64,000 nt of DNA, taken from the NCBI GenBank assembly GCA_044229845.1, contig JBGASG010000003.1:288001-352000 (forward strand), read 5' to 3'. This DNA comes from Candidatus Obscuribacteraceae bacterium (GTDB lineage Bacteria; Cyanobacteriota; Vampirovibrionia; Obscuribacterales; Obscuribacteraceae). Shown piece after piece: positions 43,593 to 64,000 of this stretch. Every line of letters begins with the position of its first letter. Positions within the stretch are counted from its first letter, which is position 1. The position numbers were made by a program, and so were the translations under genes. The notes beneath the pieces are model-generated. The model searched no databases, had not been told where the DNA came from, and was given only the letters and a program-made list of their open reading frames with translations.

Positions 43593-44039
43593 AGATATCG
43601 TCTTCGCGTCAAGCAGCCATGAAGTCCGCGCAGAACGGCTTTCCGGTTTTGAGCACTCCGAAAACTATATGCAGAAGCTTTCGCCCCTGATATCTGGTGG
43701 GGACGCTTAGAGAGCCAGCATCGCCCGAACCAACGGCAAAGCCAGGGAAAGCTGGTGACCGCTTGCGGCTTGATGGTATCGACGATTTCGCCTTCGTGAG
43801 ACTTGAGTGCAGTGAGGTATTACCACCATGGCTGGAGGCATCCAAAGCACCCAGAACTCCTGGAGCTGAGGAATTTTGGTTTTGCCATCGGTGTTGGACC
43901 AACCCTTTTTACGCCCAACACCTCGATACGAAGAGGGCGGTCTGTCCATCGGAGTGGCTCCGCGGACCAGGGCCCCCCGCTGCTACTCCTTACGCCAAGC
44001 TGGAGACCGAACGGGACGGTTGACTCTGCCCGGCTTCAG
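43593..44039 (-). mobile_element. Internally deleted IS110-family element
   Basis: Minus strand encodes RKLLHIVFGVLKTGKPF (IS110 C-terminus) followed by TTGAC-N-GACGATATCT. Degenerate VLGALDASS N-terminal motif. CT at both candidate ends; the left end is less certain. Confidence 0.7.
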
Positions 44040-44040
44040 A

Positions 44041-45966: not shown

Positions 45967-46971
45967 TCCGATGGGACGAATTCGTACTCCTGGGATGCGG
46001 AAAATAGGTTGGTGCAAATCACGTATTCGGGGAGCGGCAACAATAGTCAGTTCGCGTACGATCCATTGGGTCGGAATGTGAAGATTGAGGAACGGACCGC
46101 TGGCAGTGTGACGAGCACAAAGCAATATGTTTGGGTCAGATGGGACCGGCGGGAGGAACGCGACGCATCTGGGAACTTAACGAAAGAGTTTTTCAATGCA
46201 GGGCAGCTTAACGGCAGCACCAAATATTTCTATGCGACCGATTGGCTGGGTTCGATTCGAGAGTTAACTGACAACAGTGGTGCTATCCAAGCTGAGTATT
46301 CTTATGACCCATATGGTCGCCCGACGAAGATTGTTGAGTCCTCGCCTTCAGATTTTGGCTACGCGGGGTTGTTCGTGCACAGCCGTAGTGGTCTGAACTT
46401 TGCCGCCGTTAGGAATTACAACCCCTCCCTTGGTCGCTGGCTGAATCGCGATCCGATTGGCGAACGCGGCGGCCTAAATCTCTACCGTTATGCCAGGAGC
46501 AATCCCATATCCTTCTTTGATCAACTGGGAATGATGGCATCCCAAGGGGGAACAGCAGCCACTCCCCCAGATCCTGGTTCCATAGGCGAGCAAGCAGCAA
46601 GTTCTGCGATGGGTGGTGGTGGTGGTGAGCCCCCAAATCCAAATAAGAAGCCACCAGAGAAAAAAGATCCCGATCCAAAGGATCCGATCGATAAGGAACT
46701 GGAGGATTGCCTCGACGAAGCTGAGCATTGGCTTGAGGCGGCCGAGGAAATCCTGAAGAGACCGGACAATCAAAAACCGAAATGCAGCTCCAAAAAAGGG
46801 AGAAGAGTAACACACGAAGATCTGCTAGAGCAATTTGCGAAAATGATTGCTGACTGTATCGAAGAAGCCGATGAAAAGCGGGAAAAGAGAAACGACCAGG
46901 ATGAGAAAATCCTTCAAAAGATGCGAGAATGGCACAAGTGGTATGTCGAAAACATCAAAAGCAAACTCTGA
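44041..46971 (+). pseudogene. Orphan, 5'-truncated RHS cassette with a different toxin domain
   Basis: Homology to the upstream RHS starts abruptly at 44041. Core YDPYG...GRWLNRDP...NLYRYARSNP..FDQLGM, then an unrelated 145-aa C-terminus. Confidence 0.9.
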
Positions 46972-47728: not shown

Positions 47729-49220
47729 TTAATGCGGTGCGAGACTTGAGGCGAGCTGAGACGCGAGCCACCGGTCCGGTAGCAAATCACCAATCTCCTC
47801 GTAGTCCTGGTTTGTCAGCGTTTCCAGAACGTCTTTCCAGTATTGGAATGGATTCACGGAAAGCAGCTTACAACTATTGGTCAAACTGGCAAGGATTGAG
47901 AAAGTGTCGCCTGCGTCTTCGTCTCCCAAGAACACCAGTTTTTCCTTCCTACCGCTACTGGGCGCAGGGCCCGTTCCGCTGCATTGTTATCGATCGGAAG
48001 AAATCCTCGTTCAGTGTAGCGCGTCAAGTTGGACCAGCGCGAGACCGAGTACTGCAGGGCCTCTCCAATTGCACTTTTCGGCAGTGTGCGAGTCTGAACG
48101 TCGCGCATCCAGTCGTGCATTTCAACCAATCTCGGCACCGCTTCTCGCTGACGAAGTTGGTGGCGGTCATCCTCCTCAAGAAGATTTCCTTGTCGCTCAA
48201 TTTCATACAGGACGTGGATTCTTGCCAAAGCTTCGTCTGCAATCCGAGGATTGTTTCCCTGCGCTCGTTCGAAGTAGCGACGCGCATGCGCCATGCAACA
48301 GAGCCGTTTCGCCTGCGTGGCGCTCGCCAACGCGTCATAACCACCGTAGGCGTCCGCTTGCACGTATCCGGCGAAGTCATTCAAAAAGTCTTGTGCATGC
48401 TTGTGTCCTCGGTCTGGGTGCCACTCAAATATTACGTAGGGGTGGTCTTCGTGACCGAGATAGGTCCAGGCATAACCGGTTGGTGCTTTACCGGCACCCT
48501 TCCTCTGAAACTTCACAGGCGTCTCGTCTGCATGGATTATCCGCGACTGCAATACCTCATCTCGCATTCGCTCGTAAATGGGTCGAACCTTTCTGCACAG
48601 ACTGCAAGCCACCGACTCATGCTGGAACGAGCAACCTTGACTCCCTGGCGTTCATACATCTGCTCTTGTCGGTATAGTGGCAGATGGTTCGCATACTTGT
48701 TTTCGATTGTGTTTGCAAGCAATCCAAATCCTGGCATGCCCTTCGCGATCGGCTGGGCACTTGTTCGGGGTGCTAACACAATATGTCCGTCGCACGTCCT
48801 GCATCCGTATTTAACTTGGCGGTGGTCAGTCACCGCGAACCTGCCTGGAATGTACTCCAGCTCTTTCCATGATTCGTGCCCAATGATCTGCCGCACGTCG
48901 GTGCACTTTGGACATCGCCGCTCTTCATCCGAAAGCGTGTACTCCTGAACAGCTTCTGGAGCGGTCACGGATGTCACCCTCCCTCCACCTCCACGCCGTC
49001 TTTCTGACGTGGCCGATCGCCCGTCGGTATACCCCGAAGCTATTTGTTGAGCGAACAGAGTAAGCTGATTCGGATCTATCTTTTCCGACTTGCTGCCAAA
49101 CTCTTCTCTGAGAAACAATTCAAGACGACGCCCCAGTCGTTCATTGTCTGCCCGCAGCTCCACAATTATTTGATGGCACAAGCTAATATCGTTTGGTAGT
49201 TTTTCCGGACTTACTGGCAT
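47729..49220 (-). pseudogene. tnpC: IS66 transposase TnpC with two frameshifts
   Basis: FGSKSEK, CPKC zinc ribbon, KYANHLPLYRQ, HADETP, QADAYGGY, CMAHARRYF, IDNNAAERALR, LLP. Frame breaks near 48585 and 47935. Confidence 0.92.
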
Positions 49221-49629
49221 ATCTTGTCTCGCTGCAAGAATCTTGCAAGGTCGTATCATGCACCATATGCGGTGTCGACGGTCTGCGAAATCTCTGTCGC
49301 CGGCGGATACTGCTCAAATCAATTCCGTCCAGGATCATTCGCAGTGTGGATGCTTCGATTTCCACGCCGGCGGATGAAAAGTTCTCTAAGTCAGGAAACT
49401 CAAAAGTGCCTTTTGGAAGCATTTTGTACCACATGGCAAAGCCGTCGTTGTCCCAGTACAGCACCTTGATTCGGTCGCCTCGTTTGTTGCGGAAGACGAA
49501 CAGATAACCGGACTGCGGGTCCAAGTTCATCGCACTGCCGACGATGCCGGAAAGTGCATCAAAACTTTGTCGCATGTCAATGTCCGACGTGCAAATGAAT
49601 ATCCTCGTACCCAGAGCAGAACTCAGCAT
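49183..49629 (-). CDS. tnpB: IS66 accessory protein TnpB
   Basis: DMRQSFDAL, LFVFRNKRGDRIKVLYWDNDGF. Confidence 0.92.
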   Translation of the reverse strand: MLSSALGTRIFICTSDIDMRQSFDALSGIVGSAMNLDPQSGYLFVFRNKRGDRIKVLYWDNDGFAMWYKMLPKGTFEFPDLENFSSAGVEIEASTLRMILDGIDLSSIRRRQRFRRPSTPHMVHDTTLQDSCSETRYASKSGKTTKRY

Positions 49630-49630
49630 T

Positions 49631-50019
49631 TCACTTTCCCACAAATCGTTCAAGCAAGATATCTAGCAACTGAGGGTCGACCCCCTCATAAACTCGGAGA
49701 ACCATTTCATCAATCCAAGTCACTTCGGCAAGCAAACGCTCTTGCATCTCAATCGGTTGCGGCGTGTCCGGTAGCACGACGGGAACGAAGGAAGACTGAG
49801 TTCCACGTGTCATCTTGCGGCGCCGTTTCAATCGATCAGCGGCTGCGGCCGCATCGGTTCTCTTGATTCGAGTAACCCAATGTCCCAGTGTATTGACATT
49901 GAGCTTTCCCTTTCGCAAAACGCTTTCTGCGACAGATCAGAAGCCCGCCATTGAAGCAATATGGATCTCCACATCGCCTCCTTTTCTTCGTCCGGCGCGC
50001 CCCGAGATTTACGCGGCAT
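49631..50019 (-). pseudogene. tnpA: IS66 accessory protein TnpA, frameshifted
   Basis: WRASDLSQKAFCERE continues as LNVNTLGHW...SFVPV in another frame (break near 49905). Confidence 0.85.
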
Positions 50020-50077
50020 CGAAGCACCGATCACCGACACCAGCCGTTGCGAAAACACTCCATTCAGCGCTAATATG

Positions 50078-50168
50078 ATCTACCAGTGTCTGATCAAAAC
50101 GATTAAGTTTCATTCGTGACTTTTTCAAACAACGCCCTGTTGCGGGTTTCCGAATATGGTGCCTTCGA
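50078..50168 (-). repeat. Right arm of the 91-bp perfect inverted repeat
   Basis: Exact reverse complement of 47627-47717. Confidence 0.95.
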
Positions 50169-50820
50169 TGGCGGCTTTATCACTGGCGATGTACGCAGTG
50201 ATTGCGCTGGTTGTTTTTTTTCATCGCCGGCACGGCCAATTTGCCTTATATCTGGGCGACCCTGTCCACTCAACTGATCGCTGGGCTGATAGCTGATAGG
50301 CGTCTTCACGCTTGATGAAGATCTCATGCGCGAGCGTTTTCGTCCGCGTGGCAAAGACGAGGACCCACTGGCTCCTGCAATACTCAGCATCTTGCTATTA
50401 GCAATCATGGTGCTGTCCGCACTCGACGCCGGTCGTTGGCATCTATCCCAGATCCCAGCCTTCATTTGCATCATCGCCGAAATATTCCAGACAATTGGTT
50501 GGCTCGGATTTCTCTGGTCCATGAAAGTGAACGCGTTTTTTTCATCTGCAATTCGCTTGCAACCAGACCGCGGACAGTACGCCATCAGCGAGGGTCCGTA
50601 CCGATTCATGCGCCACCCTGGTTATGCGTTCGCTTCTCTGGCGTTTCTTACGCAAGGTCTCTCGATGGGCTCATGGCTCGCTGTCGCGCCGGCTTTGATT
50701 GTCGTTCTATACCTTTTATATAGGACGCAGCTTGAAGAGAAAATGTTGAGGGAGGGCTTGCCGGGCTATCATGACTATGCCGAGCGAGTGCGCTACCGAT
50801 GGCTGCCGGGCGTGTGGTAA
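50156..50820 (+). pseudogene. Isoprenylcysteine carboxyl methyltransferase/PEMT-family membrane protein with 5' frameshifts
   Basis: NAFFS, GPYRFMRHPGY, EEKML..LPGY..Y..RVRYRWLPGVW in 50326-50820. The upstream TM segment is rejoined by removing one T from a T8 run and one copy of a tandem GCTGATA. Confidence 0.75.
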
Positions 50821-50831
50821 AACGCGGTGTT

Positions 50832-51317
50832 TCAACCGGCGGCGCGCTGTCCGTGTGTATGACTTTTTGCTGTAGTGTCTGTTAGACGAATGATTTCTAC
50901 TGAACAATGGGCACGAGCCAGCACAGCTTCCGCAATGCTGCCGATGAAGAATTTGGCCAGTCCGGTTCTGCCGTGCGAGCCGACAATAATCATATCTGCC
51001 TGCCATTCATCAGCAATCTGCACTATGCGACCTTCAATCGATCCGGCGGTTACCAATCCGGCGATGTTGGTGCCGCACGTTTCTGTCAGTTGAGCGACCG
51101 CTTTTGAGACCATCTGCTCACCGAACGTACGCCCCGCTTCATGCACCATCGCCGAGACATCACCGAAGCTGTGACTCAGACCTATATAGGTAGCCGGCAA
51201 TGGTTGCACCACATGCAAAACCAAGAACTGCGTGTCATCAGCCCACTCGCGCTCTGCCACCGAATCCAGTGCAGCCTGAGCAAAGCGAGACCCGTCCGTA
51301 GCGATTAGAACTTTCAT
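50832..51317 (-). CDS. Universal stress protein
   Basis: MKVLIATDGS, IVGSHGRTG..FIGSIAEAV, CSV; GGAGG RBS before the ATG at 51317. Confidence 0.93.
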   Translation of the reverse strand: MKVLIATDGSRFAQAALDSVAEREWADDTQFLVLHVVQPLPATYIGLSHSFGDVSAMVHEAGRTFGEQMVSKAVAQLTETCGTNIAGLVTAGSIEGRIVQIADEWQADMIIVGSHGRTGLAKFFIGSIAEAVLARAHCSVEIIRLTDTTAKSHTHGQRAAG

Positions 51318-51516
51318 AAAACCTCCTCGCCTGGCGGTAGCAGGGTGTATGACGCGAGTCTGAACCGGGTGTTTCCCCAAAAGCTCTCAACTCAGCCATA
51401 CTGCTGCGCATAGGACTGCACGAGAATTATACTGCTACCGCAGATGGTGGCACTCAGATGAGGAACCATTGTCCGAGGCGGTGCGTCTGTGCCAGAAGTA
51501 TAGGGGAGGATAGATA

Positions 51517-53446: not shown

Positions 53447-53476
53447 GAAAAAGCCCACCTTTCAGTGGGCTTTTTC
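53447..53476. terminator. Bidirectional intrinsic terminator
   Basis: GAAAAAGCCCAC-CTTTCA-GTGGGCTTTTTC between convergent genes. Confidence 0.85.
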
Positions 53477-53538: not shown

Positions 53539-54312
53539 TTAGCAGGCTTGAGCTGGCGTCAAGCTGCGAATGCTGAGCGAAGAGCTGGCGACAGATTCCG
53601 CGCACACCGAGGCGTACTGTCTTTCAGTGCTCTGCCATTTGGCTTTTACGATGCCGTTCTTGTAGATATCCTGGTGCGTCACGAACGCGATGCGCTGGCA
53701 GATGCTGGAGCCAGCCAGTTCGTTTTGAACTGCTTCTTGATGAGCATCATCGCGCGAGACAATCCAGATCATGTCGATCTCACCGCTCTCCAGCGCCTTT
53801 TCGCAGACGGCGGTCAGTTCCGCGCGATCAGCTTTCGGCTGGTTGATGATACCGATACGGTGATCTACACCATTGCGGTTAAAAGAGATCTTGGCATCAA
53901 TTGCCGTCGTGCCGGGAACCGCTTTCGTGGTTGTCCAAGCGACATTGCTGATCAACCCGTCCTTTTGGTCGACCAGGAAGAGCATGCGAAGATTAGCCAC
54001 TTCCAGAAGGTGGCGCTGGCTGTCGCAGTTGCCCAGGTCGATGTCGGTGCTCTGTGCAGTCAACAACTCGCGCGTCATCGGCGAGAGCATATACACAAGC
54101 GGTTTCGTGGGGGTTGTCCACCACGGAAGTTTGCCGCCGTGCCGTTCGCACAGGAGGTAATCGAGGTAGAAGAGTTTGCGTAGACGGTCGCGGATCAATA
54201 CCGGTTTATCGTCGCAAGAGATAAACCAGGCGATGTGTTTTTCGAGGAGAACTTGATGCTCTTCAATCAGTTTGAAGATCATCATGTCTCTGTCGCTTAG
54301 TTGAATGGCCAT
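53539..54312 (-). CDS. Replication-relaxation (Replic_Relax)-like wHTH protein
   Basis: LSDRDMMIF.LI.EH..L, RDRLRKL, P.VYMLS, HLLEVANL match the family pattern as I recall it; C-terminal nuclease-like motif degenerate. Confidence 0.6.
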   Translation of the reverse strand: MAIQLSDRDMMIFKLIEEHQVLLEKHIAWFISCDDKPVLIRDRLRKLFYLDYLLCERHGGKLPWWTTPTKPLVYMLSPMTRELLTAQSTDIDLGNCDSQRHLLEVANLRMLFLVDQKDGLISNVAWTTTKAVPGTTAIDAKISFNRNGVDHRIGIINQPKADRAELTAVCEKALESGEIDMIWIVSRDDAHQEAVQNELAGSSICQRIAFVTHQDIYKNGIVKAKWQSTERQYASVCAESVASSSLSIRSLTPAQAC

Positions 54313-54422
54313 TGGGGGTGGTCCTCGTTTTGTTGTTTTGCCAGCGATCTTTCGGGGGTGTGCTTCTTGGTGTGGGGGGAGTCTTGCGACTCAGTTAGAC
54401 TCTATATGTTTTCAACCGTTCT

Positions 54423-55118
54423 TCATAGGTTAGGATCACGTGTTGTGTATTGCAAAAGTGCATCATCATGACGCGGTTGGTGAAGGTTGTAAGTGACTCT
54501 CATTTTGGAATCCATCATTTTTAGAGAGCGATATTGCTGTCTGAGCCCTTCGACACGGGTATGAATTTCTTCCAGCGAGGCTTGCAGTTCTTCTTGAGTC
54601 TTGGCCGCCTTGCGTGGGCGAATCATATCTTCGAAAACCGCAGCGGAATCGTCGTACCAGTCCGCCATGTTCTGCATGTAGACTGTGCTTTCCGGCATTC
54701 CATTGCAGGGCGGCATCGAACGAATGGTCTTAGCTAGCAGACGGTATCTCTTCGCGATTCCGGCAGCAGTGCGCGACCATTCCATGACCCGCTCGACTTC
54801 TTGATTGAGCGGCTTTTTCATAATCACGGCTTCGCTGACCGTCACTTTGTAGTGACCAACAGCGTCGTCATAGGCTTCCATCCACTCCAACGGTTTCGAT
54901 TGCGGAGTTACTCGCGGCATGACCCACGGGGGAGTCGGACGCTTGTAGGTGTTGGCAGCAGCATTCGGCACAGGTGCCGTGGTGCGGTTGAAAACGTCTC
55001 CTTTTTGTTGCGGATGACCGCCGTTCGGCTGCGTCGCTTGCGCCATGGAGGAGGCGAAAGTGGTGGCAGCGAAGATGGCGCTGGTCAATGCAATTTGGAT
55101 ACGTTTCGTGGCTGTCAT
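54423..55118 (-). CDS. Exported alpha-helical hypothetical protein
   Basis: Signal peptide ending MAQA, Pro-rich linker, helical domain. Confidence 0.8.
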   Translation of the reverse strand: MTATKRIQIALTSAIFAATTFASSMAQATQPNGGHPQQKGDVFNRTTAPVPNAAANTYKRPTPPWVMPRVTPQSKPLEWMEAYDDAVGHYKVTVSEAVIMKKPLNQEVERVMEWSRTAAGIAKRYRLLAKTIRSMPPCNGMPESTVYMQNMADWYDDSAAVFEDMIRPRKAAKTQEELQASLEEIHTRVEGLRQQYRSLKMMDSKMRVTYNLHQPRHDDALLQYTTRDPNL

Positions 55119-55185
55119 GTCCGTGGTCTGCTGCTAGTTGTCTGTCGGTAATACTGATGTTTTTCGCGCAGTGTGAGTTTCTTGC

Positions 55186-56673
55186 TTACGGTCCTGGGTT
55201 CGCTGGTCCACCCGGGTTCGCTGGTCCTGCTGGTCCTGCTGGTCCTGCTGGAGCCGGTCCCGGATTGGTCGGCGGAAGGAACGGTCCACCCGGTCCACCA
55301 CCGCCCGGTCCTGGAATGTTCATGCGCGTGCCGTCTTGGTACTGCGCCCAGGTGTCAGTAGAGTTGAAATCAAAGGTGTTCATCTGGACGATCTTCCAGA
55401 TGGTGTAGCCGGCGAGCAGGAGGAGCAAACCACCGACTGCACCGATGACTCGCGAACCGCCGTACGGGCTGCCGAAGACCATCGACCACGCTGCCAGAGC
55501 AACGATGATGGTGGCCATAACGACGCCCAGGATAACCAGATAGCGAGAGAAGACTCTTACTGTCGGGAGCGGTCCCATGAAGTCATATTTTGGTTGTTGT
55601 TTTTGACGGTTGAGTTGGGTGTCTTGTTCGCCGTTGGCTCCAGCTTTGGCTCCGCCGTTGTTAACGATGCCGAGACCATTGTTGTTGCCGCCGTTGTTGA
55701 CGACTTGTTGTCCGCCGTTGCCGCCGCCGAAGTCGTTCTGACGTGTGCCACCATTGCCGGCACCACCTTCGAACTGACCGTTGCCGCCGTTGCCGGCACC
55801 ACTTTCAAATACGCCGCGTCCGCCGTTGCCCTGGCCGCCTTCGAACAGTCCCTGACCGCCGTTGCCGCCACCGCCTTCGAACACGCCTTGACCGCCGTTA
55901 CCAGCGCCGCCTTCGAAGAAACCACGGCCACCGTTGCCCTGACCGCCTTCGAACGTGCCGCGACCGCCATTGCCCTGGCCGCCTTCGAACAGTCCTTGAC
56001 CGCCATTGCCGGCGCCGCCTTCGAACATGCCCTGACCGCCGTTGCCATAGCCACCTTCAAAGGTGCCTTTGCCATTGTTGCCCCAGCCGCCTTCGAAGAG
56101 TCCCTGTCCGCCGTTGCCGGCGCCGTTTTCATACTTGCCCTGACCGCCGTTGCCGTAGCCGGGTTCGTAGGTGTTTTTGCCGCCGTTGCCCCAGCCGCCT
56201 TCGTAGAGACCTTGACCGTTGATCGGCGCGCCGTTTTCATACACACCGTCCATTTGACCGTGTTGTGTTTGATAACGACCGTAGTTGTTGATGACTGGAC
56301 CTTTGGTGCCCGGGGCGCCACGGGTTCCGAAAATGTTGCCGTGTGTCGGATCGGCAAAGCTGGACGGAGGCAAGCTCGAAGCGCCTTGATCGCCGGGAAT
56401 GACACGCGGAGCCATGGAGCCATCGCCGACCGGCGGCGGTTGTCCTTGCGGAGCAGCTTGGTTAGGACGCTGCCAGGAAGCACCATGGATCAAAGGAGTA
56501 CGCAATGTCGATTGTTGCGTCGGACCGGACAAGCATGGCTTGGTCGGGTTGTACAGCATCTCGGCATATTCAGCGCGAGCGGTTGTCGGTGCGAACAGCA
56601 TCACCACACCAGTGATGATCAGGCTGATCGCCGTCAACGCTTGTTTTACTCCAACTCTATCCTTGCCTGACAT
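55186..56673 (-). CDS. Exported Gly-rich tandem-repeat protein with a C-terminal two-TM, pilin-like segment
   Basis: AGGAGA RBS overlapping the rpoB-like stop; signal peptide ending ARA; 13 x 12-aa repeats; two hydrophobic helices; Pro/Gly tail. Confidence 0.85.
   Translation of the reverse strand: MSGKDRVGVKQALTAISLIITGVVMLFAPTTARAEYAEMLYNPTKPCLSGPTQQSTLRTPLIHGASWQRPNQAAPQGQPPPVGDGSMAPRVIPGDQGASSLPPSSFADPTHGNIFGTRGAPGTKGPVINNYGRYQTQHGQMDGVYENGAPINGQGLYEGGWGNGGKNTYEPGYGNGGQGKYENGAGNGGQGLFEGGWGNNGKGTFEGGYGNGGQGMFEGGAGNGGQGLFEGGQGNGGRGTFEGGQGNGGRGFFEGGAGNGGQGVFEGGGGNGGQGLFEGGQGNGGRGVFESGAGNGGNGQFEGGAGNGGTRQNDFGGGNGGQQVVNNGGNNNGLGIVNNGGAKAGANGEQDTQLNRQKQQPKYDFMGPLPTVRVFSRYLVILGVVMATIIVALAAWSMVFGSPYGGSRVIGAVGGLLLLLAGYTIWKIVQMNTFDFNSTDTWAQYQDGTRMNIPGPGGGGPGGPFLPPTNPGPAPAGPAGPAGPANPGGPANPGP
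55756..56223 (-). repeat. 13 tandem 36-bp coding repeats (NGGxGxFEGGxG)
   Basis: Strict 12-aa periodicity in the translation. Confidence 0.9.
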
Positions 56674-56686
56674 TATGTGGTCTCTC

Positions 56687-59600
56687 CTATGAGTCCTGAT
56701 TGTGATTGTCAGAATTGCCATCTTCCTTTTTGGCAGGCGCGACGGTCACCGTCTGGGTGAGTTGCGCAAGTTGTCGCGAGAGCGACGCGAGTTCACTGAT
56801 CGACGGGAAGTCGAGCATCTCGTCGGATTCATCGGCCCAGAGGCTGGCGGCCAGCGATCTGGCGACATCCTGGGCGGTGGAAGGAGCTTCAGTCGCCGGA
56901 ACTTGCAGTTCTTCAGCGTGCACCACTTCCGGTTCTACTTGTTCGGCGCAGGGGATGCCCTGAGCGGCAGCACCAATTACGGTGGCTTCGGGTTCCAGCC
57001 CCATTGGTTGCACCAGTTCGGCCAACTCTTCCAGAGTTTCTGGGCTCATTTCGAGCATCGCCGGATCCATCACGTCTTTCTCGGCACGAGCCGGCATGTC
57101 GGTGAGGATGTCGGTTGTTTGTTCGCTGATGAATGCATCGAGCAGGTCGGAAGAAACCGGTTCGTCTTCGATATCGTCGATGAGCGGCTCCATGGACATT
57201 TCGAATTTGGTTTTGACGGCGCCCTTGGCGTTGGTGACGGAGGTGATGATCGGTGCCGTCGGCGTCGGGCGCACGACAGGCTCGTAATCGCCAGCCGGAA
57301 TCTCGATGATGTTTCTGCCTTCTTCTTCGAATTGAGCAACTTTGGAGACCATGTACTCTTCTTCGAGCGACTTGGCAGCGGCTTCGCGAGCGTCTTTCTC
57401 GGCAGCCTCTTCTTGGGCTTCGACGTATTTGCCCAGAGTCACTTCCAGACCGAGACCGCGCAGTTCGCAGCACAGTCCGTCGAAAGCAGCGGTGCGTCCG
57501 CCGGCGGTGACTTCCTTGCCTTGCACCATATCGGCATAAGCTTGATGGCGGCCTTGAATGTCATCGGACTTGATGGTCATCATTTCGTGCAGCAGGTGCG
57601 AGGCGCCGTAGGCTTGAATTGCCCAGACTTCCATTTCGCCCATGCGCTGTCCGCCGTGGTTGGCTTTGCCGCCGACCGGCTGTTGTGTAACAGCGGCGTA
57701 CGGTCCGCCCAATCCGGAGCGGGCATTGATTTTGTGCAGAACCAACTGGTTGAGCTTCAGCATGTACTGTCTGCCGACCAGGACCGGCGAGTCGAAAGCT
57801 TCGCCTGTTCTGCCGTCAAACAATTGCACTTTGCCGGATTCGGTAACCCACTCATAGCCGGGCAGTTTGCGCACTTCGGCAAGAGCTTGGGTGACGAGCT
57901 TGAAGGAAGCATCTTTTTCCAGCGATTCGTCGAACTGGTGAATGCGATAGTGACGATTGAGGATGCTGGAATAAAGACCTAGTTGTGTGTCGAATACTTG
58001 ACCGACGTTCATACGGCTGGGGACGCCCAGTGGATTCAACACGATGTCGCACGGAGTGCCGTCCGGCAGGTAAGGCATGTCTTGATCAGGAACTACGATC
58101 GAGACGATACCTTTGTTGCCGTGGCGTCCAGCCAGCTTGTCGCCGACTTCGAGCGGGCACAAACGCGCGATAAGTACTTCGATTTCGCAGATGATGCCAG
58201 CTTTCAATTCCGGTGTGGTTTCCGGTGTGAAGATGCGGACATCGATAACGCGACCACCCGAGCCGTGCGGAACACGCAGGCTGCTGTCAGCCATTTCTTC
58301 CGCCACTTTACCGAAGATAGCTTGCAAGAGTTCTTCTTCAGCGGAGAGAGCGCGAGCTTCTTTCGGGCTCAATTTGGCGACGAGAATATCGCCCGGGTTG
58401 ACGTAGCTGCCGACCATGGCGATGCCGCGTTCGTCGAGATGCTCGAGGTCTTTACCGGCGACGTTCGGCAGTTCCGGCGTCAGAATTTCTGGTCCGCGCA
58501 GGGTCTGGTGAACACCGATGGAGTGCTTTTCGATTTCGATGTGCGAAAGTTTGTGGTCGCGGATCAAACCTTGACGGACGACAATCGCGTCTTCGAAGTT
58601 GTAGCCGTTCCATGGCACGAAGGCGACGAGAAGGTTTCTTCCCAGAGCCAGTTCGCCTTGATCGATACCAGGACCATCAGCGATGATCTGTCCGGCTTCG
58701 ACGCGATCGCCCTGTCTGACGATCGGGCGCTGGTCGAGAATTGTGTTCTGGTTGGTGCGGTCGAAGCGAATCATGTTGTAGGTGCGCGATTCGCCGGAAG
58801 CTTGGGTGATGACGATCTGATCGCCGTTGACCAGGCTGACAGTACCGGCGCGACGGGCGACGACTGAGTGACCGGACGAGCGAGCGACGATTTTTTCCAT
58901 GCCGGTGCCGACGCGCGGACGTTCCGGCTTGATCAAAGGCAGAGTTTGGCGCATCATGCCGCCACCCATGAGAGCGCGGTTGGCGTCATCATGCTCGAGG
59001 AAAGGAATGAGAGCCGATCCGACCGAGATGAAACCTTGCGGAGCAATACCGATCATGTCTACTTGATCTGGTGTCACTTCGAAGAACTGTTCGCCGCAGC
59101 GTGCCGAAACGAACGGTCCTTGAATCATGTCGTTTTCGACTTTGGTGTCGGGCGGTGCAAGCGTGAAACGCTTGTCGTCTGATGGTGTCAGGTAACGGAC
59201 TTCATTGGTCACATGTCCGTTTTGCACGACGCGATAGGGAACGGTCATGAAGCCGTCGTCATCGATACGGCAGTAGGTTGCCAGATATGCCACCATACCG
59301 CAGTTTTTACCTTCAGGCGATTCCACCAGGCACACGCGACCGATTTGCGAAGGATGCACATCGCGCATTTCGTTCGGAGCGGCGTTCGGGTCGATGCCAC
59401 CAGGACCGAAGGAGGTGATTCTTCTTCTGTGCGACAGTTCGGAAAGTGGGTTCTGTTGGTCGAGGTATTGAACCAGGGGGTTGCCGGCGAAGAACTTGCT
59501 CATGGCATTGACGAACGGGCGCGAATCGACGAAATCATTGGCGCTGCCGATTTCATCTTCTTCGAACAGTTCGAGGCGGGTGCGAATCGAGCGCGACATT

Positions 59601-60598
59601 TGTGCCAGCGCCGGACGCAGCCCCTTGGTCATCACATCGCCGATACCGCGCAGGTGGCGGTTTTCCAAGCTGTCGATATTATCTGTTTGTCCAGAGCCGA
59701 GCGGCAAAAGCAGAATGTATTCGATAGCAGCAAGAATATCTTCAGCGGTCAGTTGCGAAGAGCGCTCTTCCAGACGCAGCTTATCGTTGAAGCGGCGACG
59801 ACCGAGCGAACCGAGTGAATAACGACGTTTGTCGGTGAGTTCTTTCAGGGCAGCATGACCGGATTGCGAACCGCCGCCACCATCTGGTTTCCACGCGCGA
59901 CCGACGACGGAAAGCGCTTCTTGCTGAGTGACTTGTTTCCACTCGATGCGATTCTTTTCCAGAAGCGGAGCGAGACGTTTTTGAATGGTGGACAGTTCGA
60001 CGCCCATGGCGGTCAACACTGTGGTGGCAGCCACCCAACCACGTTTGGGCAATTTGATACGGCATTTGGCGCGGCTGGTTTTGCCACTGCCGGTTTCCAG
60101 ATCCAGTTCGACGGAGACCGGAGCGCCGAGTTCAGCCAGGATAAGAGCTTTGTAGAGCATCGGGTTGTTCATTTGGAAATAGACGCCTGGTGCACGCACC
60201 AGTTGTCCGAGGACGACGCGCTCGGAACCGTTGATGACGAAGGTTCCACGATCGGTGATCACCGGCAGGTCGCCCATGTAAGCAGTCGACTTGCGCAGTT
60301 CGTTGGTTTGCAGGTCACGCAGCCACACATCCATGAGCAGGCGACGGGCATGCGTCATGTTAGTCTTGCGAGCTTGCTCGGCAGAACTGGGATAACCGGA
60401 ATCAACTGCATAATCTTCGAACTTCCAGTGAGCTTTGCCGTCGGGTCCGACGAACGAAAGTTCAAGGCGCGGATTGAATTCGCTGGCAATCGGAGAGATT
60501 TCAGCGAAGAGGGCGCCCAGGGTTTCTTCCAGAAAACGTCGGTATGAACGTCTCGGGAATTCTGCCAGATCTGGAGGCTGGAAGTAGAAGTTACTCAT
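56687..60598 (-). CDS. rpoB: Divergent DNA-directed RNA polymerase subunit beta (probable paralog) with acidic C-terminal tail
   Basis: GTFVINGSERV, PFLEHDDANRALMG, GYNFEDA, GDKLAGRHGNKG, NPLGVPSRMNVGQ, QQPVGGKA..GGQRMGEMEVWA, TIKSDD. No rplL or rpoC neighbours. Confidence 0.95.
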   Translation of the reverse strand: MSNFYFQPPDLAEFPRRSYRRFLEETLGALFAEISPIASEFNPRLELSFVGPDGKAHWKFEDYAVDSGYPSSAEQARKTNMTHARRLLMDVWLRDLQTNELRKSTAYMGDLPVITDRGTFVINGSERVVLGQLVRAPGVYFQMNNPMLYKALILAELGAPVSVELDLETGSGKTSRAKCRIKLPKRGWVAATTVLTAMGVELSTIQKRLAPLLEKNRIEWKQVTQQEALSVVGRAWKPDGGGGSQSGHAALKELTDKRRYSLGSLGRRRFNDKLRLEERSSQLTAEDILAAIEYILLLPLGSGQTDNIDSLENRHLRGIGDVMTKGLRPALAQMSRSIRTRLELFEEDEIGSANDFVDSRPFVNAMSKFFAGNPLVQYLDQQNPLSELSHRRRITSFGPGGIDPNAAPNEMRDVHPSQIGRVCLVESPEGKNCGMVAYLATYCRIDDDGFMTVPYRVVQNGHVTNEVRYLTPSDDKRFTLAPPDTKVENDMIQGPFVSARCGEQFFEVTPDQVDMIGIAPQGFISVGSALIPFLEHDDANRALMGGGMMRQTLPLIKPERPRVGTGMEKIVARSSGHSVVARRAGTVSLVNGDQIVITQASGESRTYNMIRFDRTNQNTILDQRPIVRQGDRVEAGQIIADGPGIDQGELALGRNLLVAFVPWNGYNFEDAIVVRQGLIRDHKLSHIEIEKHSIGVHQTLRGPEILTPELPNVAGKDLEHLDERGIAMVGSYVNPGDILVAKLSPKEARALSAEEELLQAIFGKVAEEMADSSLRVPHGSGGRVIDVRIFTPETTPELKAGIICEIEVLIARLCPLEVGDKLAGRHGNKGIVSIVVPDQDMPYLPDGTPCDIVLNPLGVPSRMNVGQVFDTQLGLYSSILNRHYRIHQFDESLEKDASFKLVTQALAEVRKLPGYEWVTESGKVQLFDGRTGEAFDSPVLVGRQYMLKLNQLVLHKINARSGLGGPYAAVTQQPVGGKANHGGQRMGEMEVWAIQAYGASHLLHEMMTIKSDDIQGRHQAYADMVQGKEVTAGGRTAAFDGLCCELRGLGLEVTLGKYVEAQEEAAEKDAREAAAKSLEEEYMVSKVAQFEEEGRNIIEIPAGDYEPVVRPTPTAPIITSVTNAKGAVKTKFEMSMEPLIDDIEDEPVSSDLLDAFISEQTTDILTDMPARAEKDVMDPAMLEMSPETLEELAELVQPMGLEPEATVIGAAAQGIPCAEQVEPEVVHAEELQVPATEAPSTAQDVARSLAASLWADESDEMLDFPSISELASLSRQLAQLTQTVTVAPAKKEDGNSDNHNQDS

Positions 60599-62697
60599 TA
60601 CTTAGCCACCTCGACATCGCCATTACCGCTCACCATGGAGCGTTTGTGAATCGCAAGCGCCCGGGCCAGGTCTTCGGCGTAAGCGCGATTTGCTGGTTCG
60701 AGAGCAGACGCGATCCGGAATTCAGAGATTGCATCAGCGATGCGACCGGCGGCCAGCATGTTGACGGCCAGGCGGTGGTGCACTTCGCTGTTTTGAAGGA
60801 ACTTAGCGGCCACGCCTTGCAGGATGCTGATGGCTTGGTCGTAGTTCTTGTCGCCTTCGGCTTGCGCAGCTTTCGAAATCGCTTCGGCGACTTGGCTGTT
60901 TGCTGAGTTTGCTGCGTTCGGCTTCTGGGCGGCTTGCTGTTGAGCAGCCAGAGCTTGTTGTTGGCGAGCTTGCTGCTGTTGGGCGGCGATTGCTTGTTGC
61001 TGGGCAGCCACGGCTTGCTGTTGCATCATTTGCTGTTGCGACATTTGCTGCGGCATGGCGCCGGCAGCCGGCATTGACTCGTTGTGCGTGCGCAGACCAT
61101 ACTGGTTGCCGGCCATTTGCATGCCGTTACCGCCTTCGAACACGTTCTTTTGCGGAACGGGCGGCGGGTAGGCAGCTTGTTGCTGCATCGGTTGCTGCTG
61201 TTGCACTTGCGGTTGTTGCATTTGCTGCTGCTGTTGCTGCTGCATTTGCACCATTTGCTGAGAAACGCTTTGTTGCGGCTGAGCGAGTTGGCTGGCCACT
61301 TGATTGACTTGCGGAATCTGCATACCGCGATTCTTCATGCCCGACTGCATTTCGCGCATGCGAGCAGCGGCTTCGCGGTTGTTTTCGGGATCGATAAGCA
61401 CGCAGGTCAGGTAGGCCTGGTAGGCACCTTGGTAGTCGCCATTGGACTCGAGGGTTTCGCCCATCAGGAATTGATACTTGGCGTTGCGGGGCTCCATCAT
61501 CACAGCCTGAGTGATTTCAGCGAGAGCTTCGCGGCGCAGACCTTGACCAAAGAATGTTTCGGCGGCGGCTTTGTGCTTTTCGGCGGAAGCGTGCTGGAGA
61601 GCTTTTTGCAGGCTGGCACGACCGGAAGGCAGACCAGGATGTTTGGGATCGAGAGCTTCCAGTTTGCGGTATTCATTGTCGGCACCAGCGAAGTCGCCGG
61701 TCAATTGCAGGGCGCCAGCCAGACCGAGGTGGTTTTCGGCGAGCAATGGATTTTGTGCCACTTGCCGGCGCCAAATTTCAACCAGTTGTTGACCAGCGGC
61801 GGCATCGCGCGGATCGCAGATGACTGCTTTGCGCAGCGAAGCACCAGCGCCGGTGTAGTCTTTTTGAGCCAGAGCCAGCATGCCCAGTTGGCGATGGGCT
61901 GGTCCGAAGTTGGGATCTTTGATCAGAGCTTGTCTATACCAGTTGGTGGCGGTGGTCAATTGACCATAACGCAGAGCCATATCGCCGACTTTGACGAAAG
62001 TGCGAGCCGTGGGCTCGATTTGCATGGCGGCCTGGTATTCAATAGATGCGCCTTCGAAGTCGCCGACAGCAGCCAGTTGGTCGCCGGTGGCGATTCTGGT
62101 CTCGGCGTTGTTGGGGTCACGACCCATCTTCTTAAGGGCTTCACCGAGCAAACGACCAGCCAGTCCGTTGTCTGGAGCGGCGGCGAGGGCTTGGCGGAAA
62201 AGGTTGGCCGCGGTGTTGAAGTCGCGGGCGTTCAGTCTTTCTTGACCGTAGGCGCAACGCGCTGCCGAAAGGTTGATTTTGTATTGCTTGTTGCTGGGCT
62301 CGTACTTGCAGGCTTCTTCGTGAGCAGCAATCGACTCGGACCAGCGACCTGCTTTTCCGAGTGACACACCTTTATTGTTTTGTTCGAGGGCGTACTGGAC
62401 GCGACGCTTGAAGTTGTCGCCGACGGCTTGTTGTTCTTTGGCTGCCTTTTCTTCAGCCGCTTTCTTAGCTTCTTCAGCAGCTTTCTTCTTTTCGGCTTCG
62501 ACAACACGGTAGTCGGGACGGCGCTGGAATCCGCTCACTACCGGAGCGCTGGTCTGACCTTCTTCGAAATTCTTCAGGTCGCGCTCGCGGGGCAGCGGCT
62601 GGGCGTTCATCTTGGTGGCATGCGCCGGGATGAACATCGTGCCCGAGAGCGTGGTGGCGAGAAGGAGAGTTGCTGCGATGGGTCGAACTTTGTGCAT
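60598..62697 (-). CDS. Exported TPR protein with Gln-rich linker
   Basis: Signal peptide MHKVR...PAHA, 34-aa TPRs, poly-Q tract; stop overlaps the rpoB-like start (TAATG). Confidence 0.9.
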   Translation of the reverse strand: MHKVRPIAATLLLATTLSGTMFIPAHATKMNAQPLPRERDLKNFEEGQTSAPVVSGFQRRPDYRVVEAEKKKAAEEAKKAAEEKAAKEQQAVGDNFKRRVQYALEQNNKGVSLGKAGRWSESIAAHEEACKYEPSNKQYKINLSAARCAYGQERLNARDFNTAANLFRQALAAAPDNGLAGRLLGEALKKMGRDPNNAETRIATGDQLAAVGDFEGASIEYQAAMQIEPTARTFVKVGDMALRYGQLTTATNWYRQALIKDPNFGPAHRQLGMLALAQKDYTGAGASLRKAVICDPRDAAAGQQLVEIWRRQVAQNPLLAENHLGLAGALQLTGDFAGADNEYRKLEALDPKHPGLPSGRASLQKALQHASAEKHKAAAETFFGQGLRREALAEITQAVMMEPRNAKYQFLMGETLESNGDYQGAYQAYLTCVLIDPENNREAAARMREMQSGMKNRGMQIPQVNQVASQLAQPQQSVSQQMVQMQQQQQQQMQQPQVQQQQPMQQQAAYPPPVPQKNVFEGGNGMQMAGNQYGLRTHNESMPAAGAMPQQMSQQQMMQQQAVAAQQQAIAAQQQQARQQQALAAQQQAAQKPNAANSANSQVAEAISKAAQAEGDKNYDQAISILQGVAAKFLQNSEVHHRLAVNMLAAGRIADAISEFRIASALEPANRAYAEDLARALAIHKRSMVSGNGDVEVAK

Positions 62698-62889
62698 CGT
62701 GGTGGAAGAACCGTGCCGGTGGCGAACTGTGAGCACAGCTTAACGATGCGGGGGGTATGCGGTCTATTGGGGTTTGTCCCACGGCATTCGTAAATCTCCC
62801 ATGCCGGATAAAATCGCGCCCCATGGGCGTTCACCCGCCGTTTTGAGTTGCGTAAAAACCGCAAGATTTCGCGTGTCGGGATGACAGAC

Positions 62890-63999
62890 TTAGCGCAAGG
62901 TCTGCAAAACGGTCGGGCGAGCCAGAACAGTGTCAGATCCAAATGGCTGTTGTTTGTTTCGTACGTCGACTGTAGGCAGAGGCGGGACCAGGTGGTTATT
63001 TTCTTCATCGCAAGCGAACCCGGCCATGTGTTGAGCATCGAACACAGGTTCTGCATATCGGGGCTCGCTTGTTTCCTCCCCTACCAGAACCGGGTGGGAC
63101 ATGGTCTTGGTCATAGCGTATTCGATATCTGCCATGGACATCGCGGGTGCAGGTGGACAGGTTCCTGGGTCCGGCACGTTTGCTTCTCTAGTTTTAAGAG
63201 CTGATGGAGTAGTGATAGCCGGTAAATTAGAAACAGGGTCAGCCTGTCTTTCAGGGAAAGCGTCTTGCTCATAGTTCTGGTTAGGACTCCACCCCACCAG
63301 TGCCGGCACGATCGACGCGCTGGCGTCGGCGGGCAGACCCTTCCCATGTTCAGGCATAAAACCGTGAATAGGCTGGCGGTCGTGAGCAATGAGCTGGTAG
63401 GGGTCGGCCATCGCCGAGGGCTTGCCGGACGGCGCCGGGGTGACAGGCTGGGGCGGCGTCGGGGTGTTTTCCTGCTCTTCGATTTGCTGGCGCAGCTGTT
63501 CCAGGGTACTGGTCAACGCCTGCTTCGCCGCAGACACGCGCATACCAAAATACATGCGGAAGTCCATGCCGCTGAGACCGGGAGTGCGACCCGCCTTCAT
63601 GTTCCAGATGGGCTCAGCGCGAGCAAAGACTTGGAAGCCGGGAATTTGTCTGAACAGTCTGCGAGCAATCTCGAAATCAGAGATCATAGTGTAATTATTC
63701 TTGGGGATGGTGGCATGTTCGCGAAATGGTTCGCGGAAGTTCTGCACGAAGGTGGAGGTGGCCGAGAACGTCCATCCACCACGTTGATGCACCATACCCC
63801 AAGTGTAAAAGGGGTCTATTTCCCGGTTTGGAGATTTGAAATAGCCGGTGCCGCGCAACTGCAAGAGACAATTGGCAAACACCACCGTATTTGGTGGCGT
63901 AGTCAGAACGCGAGTAGCGGTGATGCCGGGCAAAAAGTCGAACAATGGCAGCTGATTGGTCTGCCAGAGATCGCGGAACTGCATTTCGACTTGAACGTT
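62890..63999 (-). CDS. Partial hypothetical protein; possible outer-membrane beta-barrel segment followed by a low-complexity tail
   Basis: Frame is open to the window edge; alternating aromatic beta-strands (WTFSATSTF, FQVFARAE, FRMYFGMRVS). Confidence 0.6.
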   Translation of the reverse strand, partial: NVQVEMQFRDLWQTNQLPLFDFLPGITATRVLTTPPNTVVFANCLLQLRGTGYFKSPNREIDPFYTWGMVHQRGGWTFSATSTFVQNFREPFREHATIPKNNYTMISDFEIARRLFRQIPGFQVFARAEPIWNMKAGRTPGLSGMDFRMYFGMRVSAAKQALTSTLEQLRQQIEEQENTPTPPQPVTPAPSGKPSAMADPYQLIAHDRQPIHGFMPEHGKGLPADASASIVPALVGWSPNQNYEQDAFPERQADPVSNLPAITTPSALKTREANVPDPGTCPPAPAMSMADIEYAMTKTMSHPVLVGEETSEPRYAEPVFDAQHMAGFACDEENNHLVPPLPTVDVRNKQQPFGSDTVLARPTVLQTLR

Positions 64000-64000
64000 C

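Follow-up and report, generated by a model that had tools for sequence, protein, structure and literature searches.

Bacterial transcription is, in the textbook view, carried out by a single RNA polymerase core, and the sole exception found in print is that of actinomycetes, which carry near-identical duplicates of rpoB, the gene of the beta subunit. In Nonomuraea gerenzanensis, the two copies, rpoB(R) and rpoB(S), are reported to be set apart only by the deletion of six lobe residues and by five fork substitutions, among them the resistance changes H526N and S531Y (PMC5431353). Such duplicates are said to give two RNA polymerase forms per cell, and a global switching of expression has been proposed (PMC5431353). 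In an initial annotation of the DNA considered here, the previously known second rpoB copies, from rifamycin-resistant actinobacteria, were described as close paralogues. The present study concerns a window of 64,000 nucleotides from a Candidatus Obscuribacteraceae bacterium (C18:288001-352000, the whole stretch of DNA that was analysed), which encodes RpoB2, a complete second beta subunit of 1303 amino acids, at 56687..60598 on the minus strand. It represents a new and much more extreme case of duplicated rpoB, in a new phylum.

Like rpoB(R) of N. gerenzanensis and rpoB2 of Nocardia farcinica, RpoB2 is a second beta placed beside a housekeeping one in the presence of a single beta-prime, and the actinomycete duplicates also differ in the lobe and the fork domain (PMC5431353). 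Unlike these near-identical duplicates, RpoB2 is 42-46% identical to the canonical copy (13 genomes), with H526 kept and threonine in place of S531. Changes in 92 near-invariant columns, a C-terminal tail of 245 amino acids bearing short motifs, a dedicated operon with a candidate operator and the different phylum are further features of RpoB2 which the actinomycete rpoB(R) does not share.

Other multisubunit polymerases offer more remote parallels. In plants, the second-largest subunit of RNA polymerases IV and V (NRPD2/NRPE2) is a duplicate of that of Pol II, both largest subunits are duplicated as well, and the two enzymes act in RNA-directed DNA methylation. The likeness lies in the duplication of a large subunit while other subunits are shared, and in the loss of invariant residues around the active centre and the cleft loops; the plant enzymes, however, are eukaryotic and of known function, and the RpoB2 lineage duplicates beta only. 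The RNA polymerase of Francisella, which contains two different alpha subunits together in one enzyme, is likewise a bacterial core altered by a diverged paralogue of a core subunit, but RpoB and RpoB2 must be alternatives to each other. The beta-like proteins of phage multisubunit RNA polymerases are phage-encoded, usually split and very remote from bacterial beta, whereas RpoB2 is chromosomal, lies in conserved synteny, is full length and shares 41-46% identity with bacterial RpoBs. Among the papers listed by full-text searches, rpoB duplications were found in actinomycetes alone, and no report of a second rpoB in the RpoB2 lineage was found. The main text of Soo et al. 2014 makes no mention of rpoB or RNA polymerase (PMC4040986), and in the searched passages of Oliver et al. 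2021, who used Vampirovibrionia RpoB sequences, no second copy is mentioned (PMC8047818).

The open reading frame (ORF) of RpoB2 begins with ATG and runs for 1303 codons with no internal stop, so that its description as uninterrupted was correct. All six Pfam Rpb2 domains (1, 2, 3, 45, 6 and 7) are matched in canonical order, Rpb2_1, the protrusion domain, only weakly (25.8 bits, below the cut-off of 28.2), and the protein exceeds the cut-offs of both NCBIfam rpoB equivalog models, with 1078.3 against 896 bits for PRK00405 and 1034.2 against 801.15 bits for TIGR02013. In the same genome, the canonical RpoB and RpoB2 respectively score 68 and 26 bits for Rpb2_1, 153 and 68 for Rpb2_2, 79 and 46 for Rpb2_45, 94 and 68 for Rpb2_7, 103 and 86 for Rpb2_3, and 438 and 330 for Rpb2_6. 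Of the solved structures, the cyanobacterial beta chain 8syi_C matches RpoB2 best (914 bits), and its residues 12-1069 align with residues 6-1067 of RpoB2 in one unbroken stretch; the core, residues 1-1057 (57428..60598, minus strand), is thus collinear with a compact cyanobacterial-type beta, as had been proposed. The motifs named in that proposal (NFED, GDKLAGRHGNKG, PSRMN and GGQRxGEME) are present in the translation, as NGYNFED at residues 664-670, GDKLAGRHGNKG at 819-830, PSRMN at 860-864 and GGQRMGEME at 982-990, and a signal peptide is absent from it. RpoB2 shares with canonical compact cyanobacterial RpoBs (8syi_C, 8h3v_A, 8gzg_C and the housekeeping copy of its own genome) the length class, the domain order and identical or near-identical active-centre motifs, and differs from them in its location away from rpoC1/rpoC2, in its tail and in a core which evolves twice as fast.

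The window belongs to a 5.16-Mb assembly of 22 contigs, 88% complete and with an estimated contamination of 2.35%. The housekeeping RpoB of this genome lies on another contig (C1:23731-27300) and is 45% identical to RpoB2. Downstream of this housekeeping gene, in the same orientation, come ORFs of 599 and 1245 amino acids, in which all the Rpb1_1, Rpb1_2 and Rpb1_5 domains of the assembly lie, as does its single NADFDGD motif. The locus on C1 thus has the split rpoB-rpoC1-rpoC2 arrangement that is typical of Cyanobacteriota, and the search for a canonical locus, for which the initial annotation had called, identifies RpoB2 as a second copy rather than a relocated housekeeping gene. RpoB2 itself does not adjoin rpoC1/rpoC2, being flanked by a gene for a tetratricopeptide repeat (TPR) protein and one for a glycine-rich membrane protein. 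The claim that no rpoC follows it therefore stood, since the next gene is that of the glycine-rich protein and beta-prime domains occur on C1 only; the broader description of a stand-alone gene overlooked both the C-terminal motif tail and a conserved operon, whose other members are here called F2, F0, F5 and F3. The single rpoA of the assembly is located on the 518-kb contig C18, about 72 kb from RpoB2, and the guanine-plus-cytosine (GC) content of this contig matches that of the genome (0.553 for C18 and 0.555 for C1). Five near-closed relatives (94-99% complete) have one rpoC1 each, beside the canonical rpoB. These genomes hold one beta-prime (split into gamma and beta-prime) and one alpha. 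No photosynthetic reaction-centre gene was found in the 88%-complete assembly.

The residues which distinguish RpoB2 were examined in an alignment of 51 ordinary RpoBs (37 rows from the families of the phylum, Escherichia coli and 11 other outgroup rows) and 18 RpoB2 rows. Columns conserved in at least 96% of the ordinary RpoBs, 328 in number, were taken as near-invariant; positions follow E. coli numbering and region boundaries are approximate. The RpoB2 consensus keeps 236 of these columns and changes 92, which agrees with the earlier observation that many near-invariant motifs are altered, and in 71 of the changed columns the replacement is in turn conserved in at least 90% of the RpoB2 copies. 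When each sequence was left out in turn, ordinary RpoBs deviated at a median of 3 columns and each RpoB2 at 94-101, the most deviant ordinary RpoBs (Saccharibacteria, Spirochaetia and one Bacilli metagenome-assembled genome, MAG) reaching 37-43.

The changes are concentrated in the lobe, the protrusion, the Rif/fork-loop-2 region and the C-terminal clamp. Half of the near-invariant columns are changed in the lobe (151-445), 43% in both the Rif/fork-loop-2 region (501-575) and External-1, 33% in the protrusion part (446-500), 29% in the flap and 28% in the C-terminal clamp (1241-1342), falling to 16% in the N-terminal hybrid-binding region (661-830) and to 7% in the C-terminal one (1059-1240), where only 3 of 43 columns are affected. 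The best conserved stretch is an active-centre block extending from GDKLAGRHGNKG (819-830) to PSRMN (860-864), at 58007..58144 on the minus strand, in which K1065, H1070, K1073, S1105, R1106 and M1107 are kept in all 18 copies. Equally constant (18 of 18) are the beta active-centre residues R678, Q688, E813, D814, K1065, K1073 and R1106, whose roles we assume from the RNA polymerase literature. M681, R687 and R1269-E1274 are kept in all or nearly all copies, and the Rif contacts Q513, D516, H526 and R529 and the hydrophobic flap-tip residues L901, L902, I905 and F906 are also retained.

The most conspicuous remodelling affects the Rif-cluster-I and fork-loop-2 segment, residues 370-413 of the protein (59360..59491, minus strand), which reads FAGNPLVQYLDQQNPLSELSHRRRITSF, then GPGGIDPNAAPNEMRD. 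Of the 49 near-invariant columns between positions 501 and 575, RpoB2 differs at 21, and in 19 of these the new residue is fixed. Ten of the fixed replacements are found in Rif cluster I (S508G, S509N, Q510P, S512V, F514Y, M515L, T525S, K527R, S531T and L533F), and fork loop 2, which we take to contact downstream DNA, has L538I, R540P, R542A, G544P and V547M. Elsewhere, the fixed changes include W183P (P160 in RpoB2), at what is presumably the residue stacking on the nontemplate strand, and G373D in the gate loop; G449E and R452H; N684G and Q686M; E908K and K909V at the flap tip; H1237Q and H1244N; S1252A, L1253A and Q1264N; and P1320T, E1321A and S1322A, which convert PESF into TAAF. K1065 and H1237 are, on our assumption, both cross-link sites of the initiating nucleotide. 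The initial annotation had described the protein as catalytically intact, which holds for the active-centre residues, while the loss of neighbouring invariants (H1237Q, N684G and those of fork loop 2) had been overlooked. An AlphaFold2 model of residues 1-1200, built from a 15-row alignment, was poor, with a mean predicted local distance difference test (pLDDT) score of 41.5 and a predicted template-modelling (pTM) score of 0.29, and was not used.

The kept active-centre part of RpoB2 is meaningful only opposite the catalytic barrel of beta-prime. As this part is the best preserved, and as the genomes offer one beta-prime and one alpha, RpoB2 would replace RpoB in some core enzymes; we consider it fairly probable, judging from the sequence comparisons, that it is an alternative beta which builds a second RNA polymerase core with the alpha and beta-prime of the host, as the initial annotation had proposed.

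Selection on the gene is strong. In comparison with a congener, at a synonymous divergence (dS) of 0.18, the ratio of nonsynonymous to synonymous substitution rates (dN/dS) is 0.044 for the whole of RpoB2. Residues 1-1060 taken alone give 0.019 and the tail 0.14, and the canonical rpoB has a ratio of 0.029. Five more distant pairs, in most of which dS is near or at saturation, gave 0.07-0.16 for RpoB2 and 0.055-0.095 for the canonical gene in the four with a usable value, the canonical dS of the fifth not being computable. RpoB2 is under purifying selection as strong as that on the housekeeping rpoB and is not decaying; the closest pair (0.044 against 0.029) thus confirms the purifying selection which the initial annotation had predicted.

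Of the 24 other genomes of the family, 22 have an RpoB2-type match (72-98% identity), which in three of them is a fragment or split; the sister family has one in one genome out of three. Such a match was found in none of 13 genomes from six other families of the class, where the match is canonical and only 43-45% identical; the genomes of the class searched outside the order were 52 in all. Across the order, a match of at least 73% identity occurs in at least 89 of 107 genomes among the matches listed, beside which there were 57 weaker ones, and the other 18 genomes are not all classifiable. None was present in 120 further genomes of the phylum, whose full-length matches are 41-46% identical. 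Genome sizes in the RpoB2 lineage, which belongs to the non-photosynthetic Cyanobacteriota, are 3-9 Mb. The large genome, the occurrence in sludge and the 2-Mb genomes of sister families agree with the non-photosynthetic cyanobacteria of Obscuribacter type treated by Soo et al. 2014 (PMC4040986), among which the lineage would probably be placed. Both copies lie on one molecule in the single-contig genomes G041 and G063 and share contig C1 in G090 and in G092, which excludes contamination. The carrier in the sister family, G027, has RpoB2 on a 4.5-kb contig with a GC content of 0.39, near the 0.42 of the canonical locus of that genus, so that this copy is probably genuine and RpoB2 may therefore predate the split of the two families.

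A HMMER search of 1.84 billion representatives of 50% clusters returned one full-length RpoB2 (79% identity) and one fragment, after which the score drops from 2026 to 807 bits (41% identity) with no intermediate forms in that library. A scan of genome contigs with universal motifs kept 80 loci, of which one, in "MAG: Cyanobacteria bacterium REEB67", is of the RpoB2 type (77%); the rest are ordinary RpoBs and served as named outgroups. Nothing related to RpoB2 was found in IMG/VR with two peptide patterns, the single match having 27% identity, and nothing related to F3 with two patterns of its own.

Several family members depart from the common state. G014 (85% complete) and G073 (92% complete) have only the canonical RpoB, G014 being also devoid of F3, possibly as a result of the loss of the whole module or of an assembly gap. 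G007 has two RpoB2 genes (G007:C50:255-3755 and G007:C21:133881-137435), with proteins 84% identical and a dS of about 1.1, which represent either a further duplication or two strains in one bin with an estimated contamination of 8%. In G012 (G012:C3:9577-13082) the protein is divided between two adjacent frames (residues 3-501 and 500-1166), either by a frameshift or by an assembly error. Estimated contamination is 1-12% in the RpoB2 family against 0-1% in sister families with small genomes, and a duplicated single-copy marker such as rpoB may add to the estimates of the family.

In a maximum-likelihood tree under the LG+G4 model (68 rows and 1110 columns, with 18 RpoB2 rows and 11 outgroup rows from four phyla), the RpoB2 rows form one clade with a Shimodaira-Hasegawa-like approximate likelihood-ratio (SH-aLRT) support of 100 and a stem of 1.88 changes per site. 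This clade is sister to all canonical RpoBs of the phylum (SH-aLRT 99), and both are split from the outgroups (99). A site-heterogeneous mixture model applied to 29 of the 68 rows left the topology unchanged, the stem measuring 3.9 and the corresponding supports being 92 and 96. RpoB2 is thus a long-branch clade of its own, with a stem of 1.9 to 3.9 changes per site, as the initial annotation had expected. Within the clade, the order of branching is broadly similar to that seen among the canonical copies. Distances between 13 genomes (78 pairs) measured on one protein are correlated with those measured on the other (r 0.72, a value reached by none of 2000 permutations), the RpoB2 core being on average 2.0 times more divergent. 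RpoB2 is vertically inherited across about 36 genera and co-diverges with its hosts.

The basal position of the clade raises the question of its origin. Horizontal transfer from an unsampled deep-branching lineage or a mobile element, in place of a duplication within the order, is a possibility that we hold to be real, if doubtful: both trees set RpoB2 outside the canonical RpoBs of the phylum (SH-aLRT 99 under LG+G4, 92 under the mixture model), and F3, the last gene of the operon, resembles Replication-relaxation proteins, a family common on plasmids and phages. Yet with so long a stem (1.9-3.9 changes per site) long-branch attraction would be expected to draw the clade to the base of the tree, and an approximately unbiased (AU) test does not reject a single clade of RpoB2 and the canonical RpoBs of the order (log-likelihood difference 3.87, p 0.293). 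Furthermore, all three insert blocks which are shared by the canonical RpoBs of the phylum and absent from at least 80% of the outgroups are present in RpoB2; the alignment holds no class- or order-specific indels for a finer placement. The best solved and genomic matches are of cyanobacterial type, no donor or intermediate occurs among the 1.84 billion representatives, IMG/VR gave no RpoB2-like or F3-like match with the patterns used, and the GC content is that of the genome. The explanation that needs the fewest assumptions would be that an ancestor of the family or of the order duplicated the gene, and that a burst of change and then vertical descent followed. Of the earlier description as an ancient duplicate, the age is borne out (at least 89 of 107 genomes, with co-divergence); as to its origin, the tree places RpoB2 at the base of the phylum and the AU test is compatible with a duplication within the order.

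The tail, residues 1058-1303 (56690..57427, minus strand), is acidic. Its length is about 245 amino acids here and varies from 121 to 335 across the 18 aligned copies, in which the blocks LEE..V, EIPAGDY.P, P..TS, PLIDDI, FI and DFPSLSEL..LA.EL are conserved across genera; in the present protein, EIPAGDY occupies residues 1099-1105, PLIDDI 1138-1143, FI 1156-1157 and DFPS(I/L)SEL..L 1263-1277. P1101, A1102, G1103, D1104, T1119, F1156, I1157 and L1273 are invariant or nearly so in 15 copies. By its sequence, the tail looks like a disordered linker with docking motifs. A complex prediction of the tail (residues 1058-1303, 15-row alignment) with F3 (14-row alignment) scored 0.00 in both runs, which were made without controls and count neither for nor against an interaction. 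Canonical RpoBs of the order, such as that at C1:23731-27300, also have acidic C-terminal tails, of 100-250 amino acids with a motif SPFGEIGLE.EL, and the other RpoBs of the phylum are without such tails and end about 45-75 amino acids past the core. Homology between DFPSLSEL..L and SPFGEIGLE.EL was considered and set aside, the likeness being weak and too short to call.

Synteny was sampled in 16 loci from 16 genomes of about 15 genera. F2, RpoB2 and F0 follow each other on one strand in all 16; by ORF clustering F3 follows in 15, lying 2.1 kb downstream of RpoB2 in the sixteenth, and F5 in 13. F2 (60598..62697, minus strand), directly upstream of RpoB2, is an exported TPR protein according to its Pfam matches, and the junction sequence has its stop codon overlapping the start of RpoB2 (TAATG); its own start is likely the ATG at 62697, not the GTG at 62736, and signal peptides were seen in all 16 orthologues looked at. 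F0 (55186..56673, minus strand), directly downstream, is by its translation a glycine-rich repeat membrane protein with no Pfam family, whose likely start is an ATG 13 nucleotides past the RpoB2 stop, behind a good ribosome-binding site (AGGAGAG). F5 (54423..55118, minus strand) is an exported protein of 231 amino acids and of no known family, with no Pfam match and no convincing match in the Atlas. By inspection, the orthologues of F2, F0 and F5 all begin with signal peptides. The last gene, F3 (53539..54312, minus strand), encodes a cytoplasmic protein of 257 amino acids, which has no Pfam match at an E value of 0.01 and is Replication-relaxation-like (winged-helix) by comparison with the PF13814 clusters of the Atlas (features score 0.95, structure TM 0.70). 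Its first 75 residues or so are almost invariant in 14 orthologues. The presence or absence of F3 matches that of RpoB2 in 41 of 41 genomes, which, as the genes are linked, mainly shows that the module is kept or lost whole. Divergently upstream of the operon are genes for a LuxR-type response regulator (11 of 16 loci), an LmeA-like protein, a GerMN-domain protein and pyrF.

A non-coding element upstream of F2 (62737..62806, minus strand) is conserved across genomes. It consists of two TGGGA repeats (62803-62795 and 62783-62775), 20 nucleotides apart, then CCCCAATAGACC, and of a -35-like TAGACC (62766-62761) and a -10-like TAAGCT (62742-62737) separated by an 18-nucleotide spacer. A 9-mer is shared by 10 of 15 loci and CC[CA]AATAGA by 11 of 16; the other five of the 16 have a TGGGA..TCCCA palindrome and a GTTAAGCT-like, -10-like box. 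The element occurs once in the 5.16-Mb assembly and is a candidate operator for the divergent LuxR-type regulator or for F3. The proposed promoter rests on this cross-genome conservation and not on a scan for the sigma-70 consensus, in which promoter-like sites showed no excess (4, against 3.7 in shuffled sequences). Consensus scans also located a terminator-like hairpin with a 12-bp stem at 53447..53476, with no strand assigned, between the convergent ends of F3 and a neighbouring TPR gene, and another just upstream of the conserved element (62817-62829). No credible RNA family was found between 53000 and 64000 with Rfam, the three matches being far below the gathering thresholds.

Six metatranscriptome runs, from sludge, contain 30-63% of the sampled words of the RpoB2 gene. 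In four such runs, each from a different study, there are contigs with a likeness of at least 99% that span F3, F5, F0, RpoB2 and F2 (53629-62713), which is consistent with transcription of the operon. Between 50000 and 64000, these four libraries leave 50000-51400 and 63076-64000 without cover, a pattern which fits the operon borders and is not counted as evidence. Elsewhere in the window, an IS66 Orf2-like TnpB (Pfam, E 2e-31) with a small overlapping upstream ORF (49183-49918, minus strand) represents either an element of the IS66 family or what remains of one, at a distance of a few kb from the operon, and a universal stress protein gene lies at 50832-51380. A protein of 983 amino acids (44020-46971, plus strand) with an RHS_repeat match (Pfam, E 3e-15), weak LysM and GbpA_2 matches and a Lys/Glu-rich C-terminal end past the RHS core looks, by this composition, like a polymorphic-toxin-type Rhs protein.

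If RpoB2 is an alternative beta, it would compete with RpoB for the alpha dimer, and the resulting alpha2-RpoB2 would bind the same gamma/beta-prime and omega to give a second core enzyme, RpoB being replaced in a fraction of the cores. The catalytic contribution of beta would be retained (R678, Q688, E813/D814, K1065, K1073 and R1106), and the surfaces which handle DNA and RNA or dock factors would have been rebuilt and then frozen. Such surfaces would be the lobe and protrusion, fork loop 2 and the Rif-cluster-I region, together with switch 3, the flap tip, the neighbours of the i site (N684G and H1237Q) and the C-terminal clamp, where TAA has taken the place of PES. With invariants replaced on the cleft and factor-docking surfaces, the second core should behave differently in DNA loading, in promoter opening or escape, in elongation and pausing and in factor binding, and perhaps also in its sensitivity to inhibitors which bind beta near the active centre. 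RpoB2 would be made conditionally, its synthesis being apparently switched by the operator of the operon along with that of three envelope proteins and a DNA-binding protein; such a control suggests that the enzyme serves a particular cell state and is not in constitutive use. The short motifs of the tail are probably docking sites for a partner.

Some observations weigh against a second core. Three of the four operon partners are exported or membrane proteins, which is unexpected for a transcription module. The C-terminal clamp differs from ordinary RpoBs in 15 of its 54 near-invariant columns, and the PES of PESF, which is near-universal, is among the residues lost; this could weaken or alter the binding to beta-prime. 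H1237 and N684, which we take to adjoin the initiating-nucleotide site, are replaced in all RpoB2 copies. The assembly is 88% complete, so a second beta-prime could have been missed, although none was found in the five relatives that are 94-99% complete. The contigs from RNA libraries, finally, give no level or strand, and carry-over of DNA is possible. A fuller picture, which we put forward more tentatively, is that these bacteria have two different multisubunit RNA polymerases with shared alpha, beta-prime and omega and a swapped beta, the RpoB2 enzyme, with its re-engineered cleft and factor-docking tail, being specialised for a distinct template, promoter class or cell state and switched on with an envelope-remodelling operon.

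RpoB2 might instead be an inhibitor-resistant spare beta which lets transcription continue when a beta-binding compound blocks the housekeeping enzyme, as was proposed for the actinomycete rpoB(R)/rpoB2. The compounds in question would presumably be binders of the rifamycin/sorangicin pocket, streptolydigin (fork loop 2) or GE23077 (i/i+1 site). The segment formed by Rif cluster I and fork loop 2 is indeed the most heavily rebuilt of the conserved ones (21 of 49 columns), and S531T, L533F, G544P, F545V and N684G fall on resistance sites. The actinomycete precedent differs in the same two domains, lobe and fork (PMC5431353). However, H526N is the key change of the actinomycete copies (PMC5431353), and the main Rif contacts Q513, D516, H526 and R529 are all kept in RpoB2. 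A few substitutions are enough for resistance, which calls neither for 92 changed invariants nor for a new tail or an operon of its own, and the changes reach the lobe, protrusion, flap and C-terminal clamp, far from the drug pockets. On these grounds we regard a spare beta as rather unlikely.

The loss in all copies of N684, H1237, the fork-loop-2 arginines and W183, together with a production that looks conditional, from an operator-bearing promoter of its own, would also suit a non-catalytic regulator or decoy which binds alpha, beta-prime or sigma and throttles or redirects transcription, for example during dormancy. A decoy has no need of kept catalytic residues, and the catalytic-centre block is the best conserved of all (40 of 43 columns, with K1065, K1073, R1106, E813, D814 and R678 retained), while the dN/dS of the core, 0.019, is as low as for an enzyme; we therefore judge this role improbable.

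The tight, conserved operon with three exported or membrane proteins, the translational coupling to the TPR gene and the long tail, whose short conserved motifs the canonical core lacks, could further suggest a job outside RNA polymerase and with the operon neighbours, such as an envelope-tied scaffold whose tail docks F0 or another partner. RpoB2, though, has no signal peptide, and its conserved residues make sense only when facing the active site of beta-prime; no precedent for such a job is known to us, and it seems very unlikely. An artefact, either a contaminant contig binned into a fragmented genome (22 contigs, 88% complete, 2.35% estimated contamination) or a decaying duplicate, was rejected and has next to no probability, given that C18 carries the only rpoA and matches the genome in GC, that G041 and G063 hold both copies on a single contig, that synteny is conserved in 16 loci and that dN/dS is 0.044.

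RpoB2 is as far from the RpoB of its own genome as RpoBs of different phyla are from one another, and dozens of residues fixed throughout the bacteria have been replaced in it and then frozen by strong selection across the family. It constitutes a natural experiment on the indispensability of "invariant" features such as W183, the fork-loop-2 arginines, N684, H1237 and the C-terminal PESF. Since rpoB is a standard single-copy marker in phylogeny and quality assessment, the two copies present here can disturb marker trees, amplicon surveys and contamination estimates. For the biology of the lineage, RpoB2 is a candidate second, specialised bacterial transcription machine; if these bacteria do operate two polymerases, they would provide a bacterial counterpart of the specialised eukaryotic polymerases which arose from subunit duplication.

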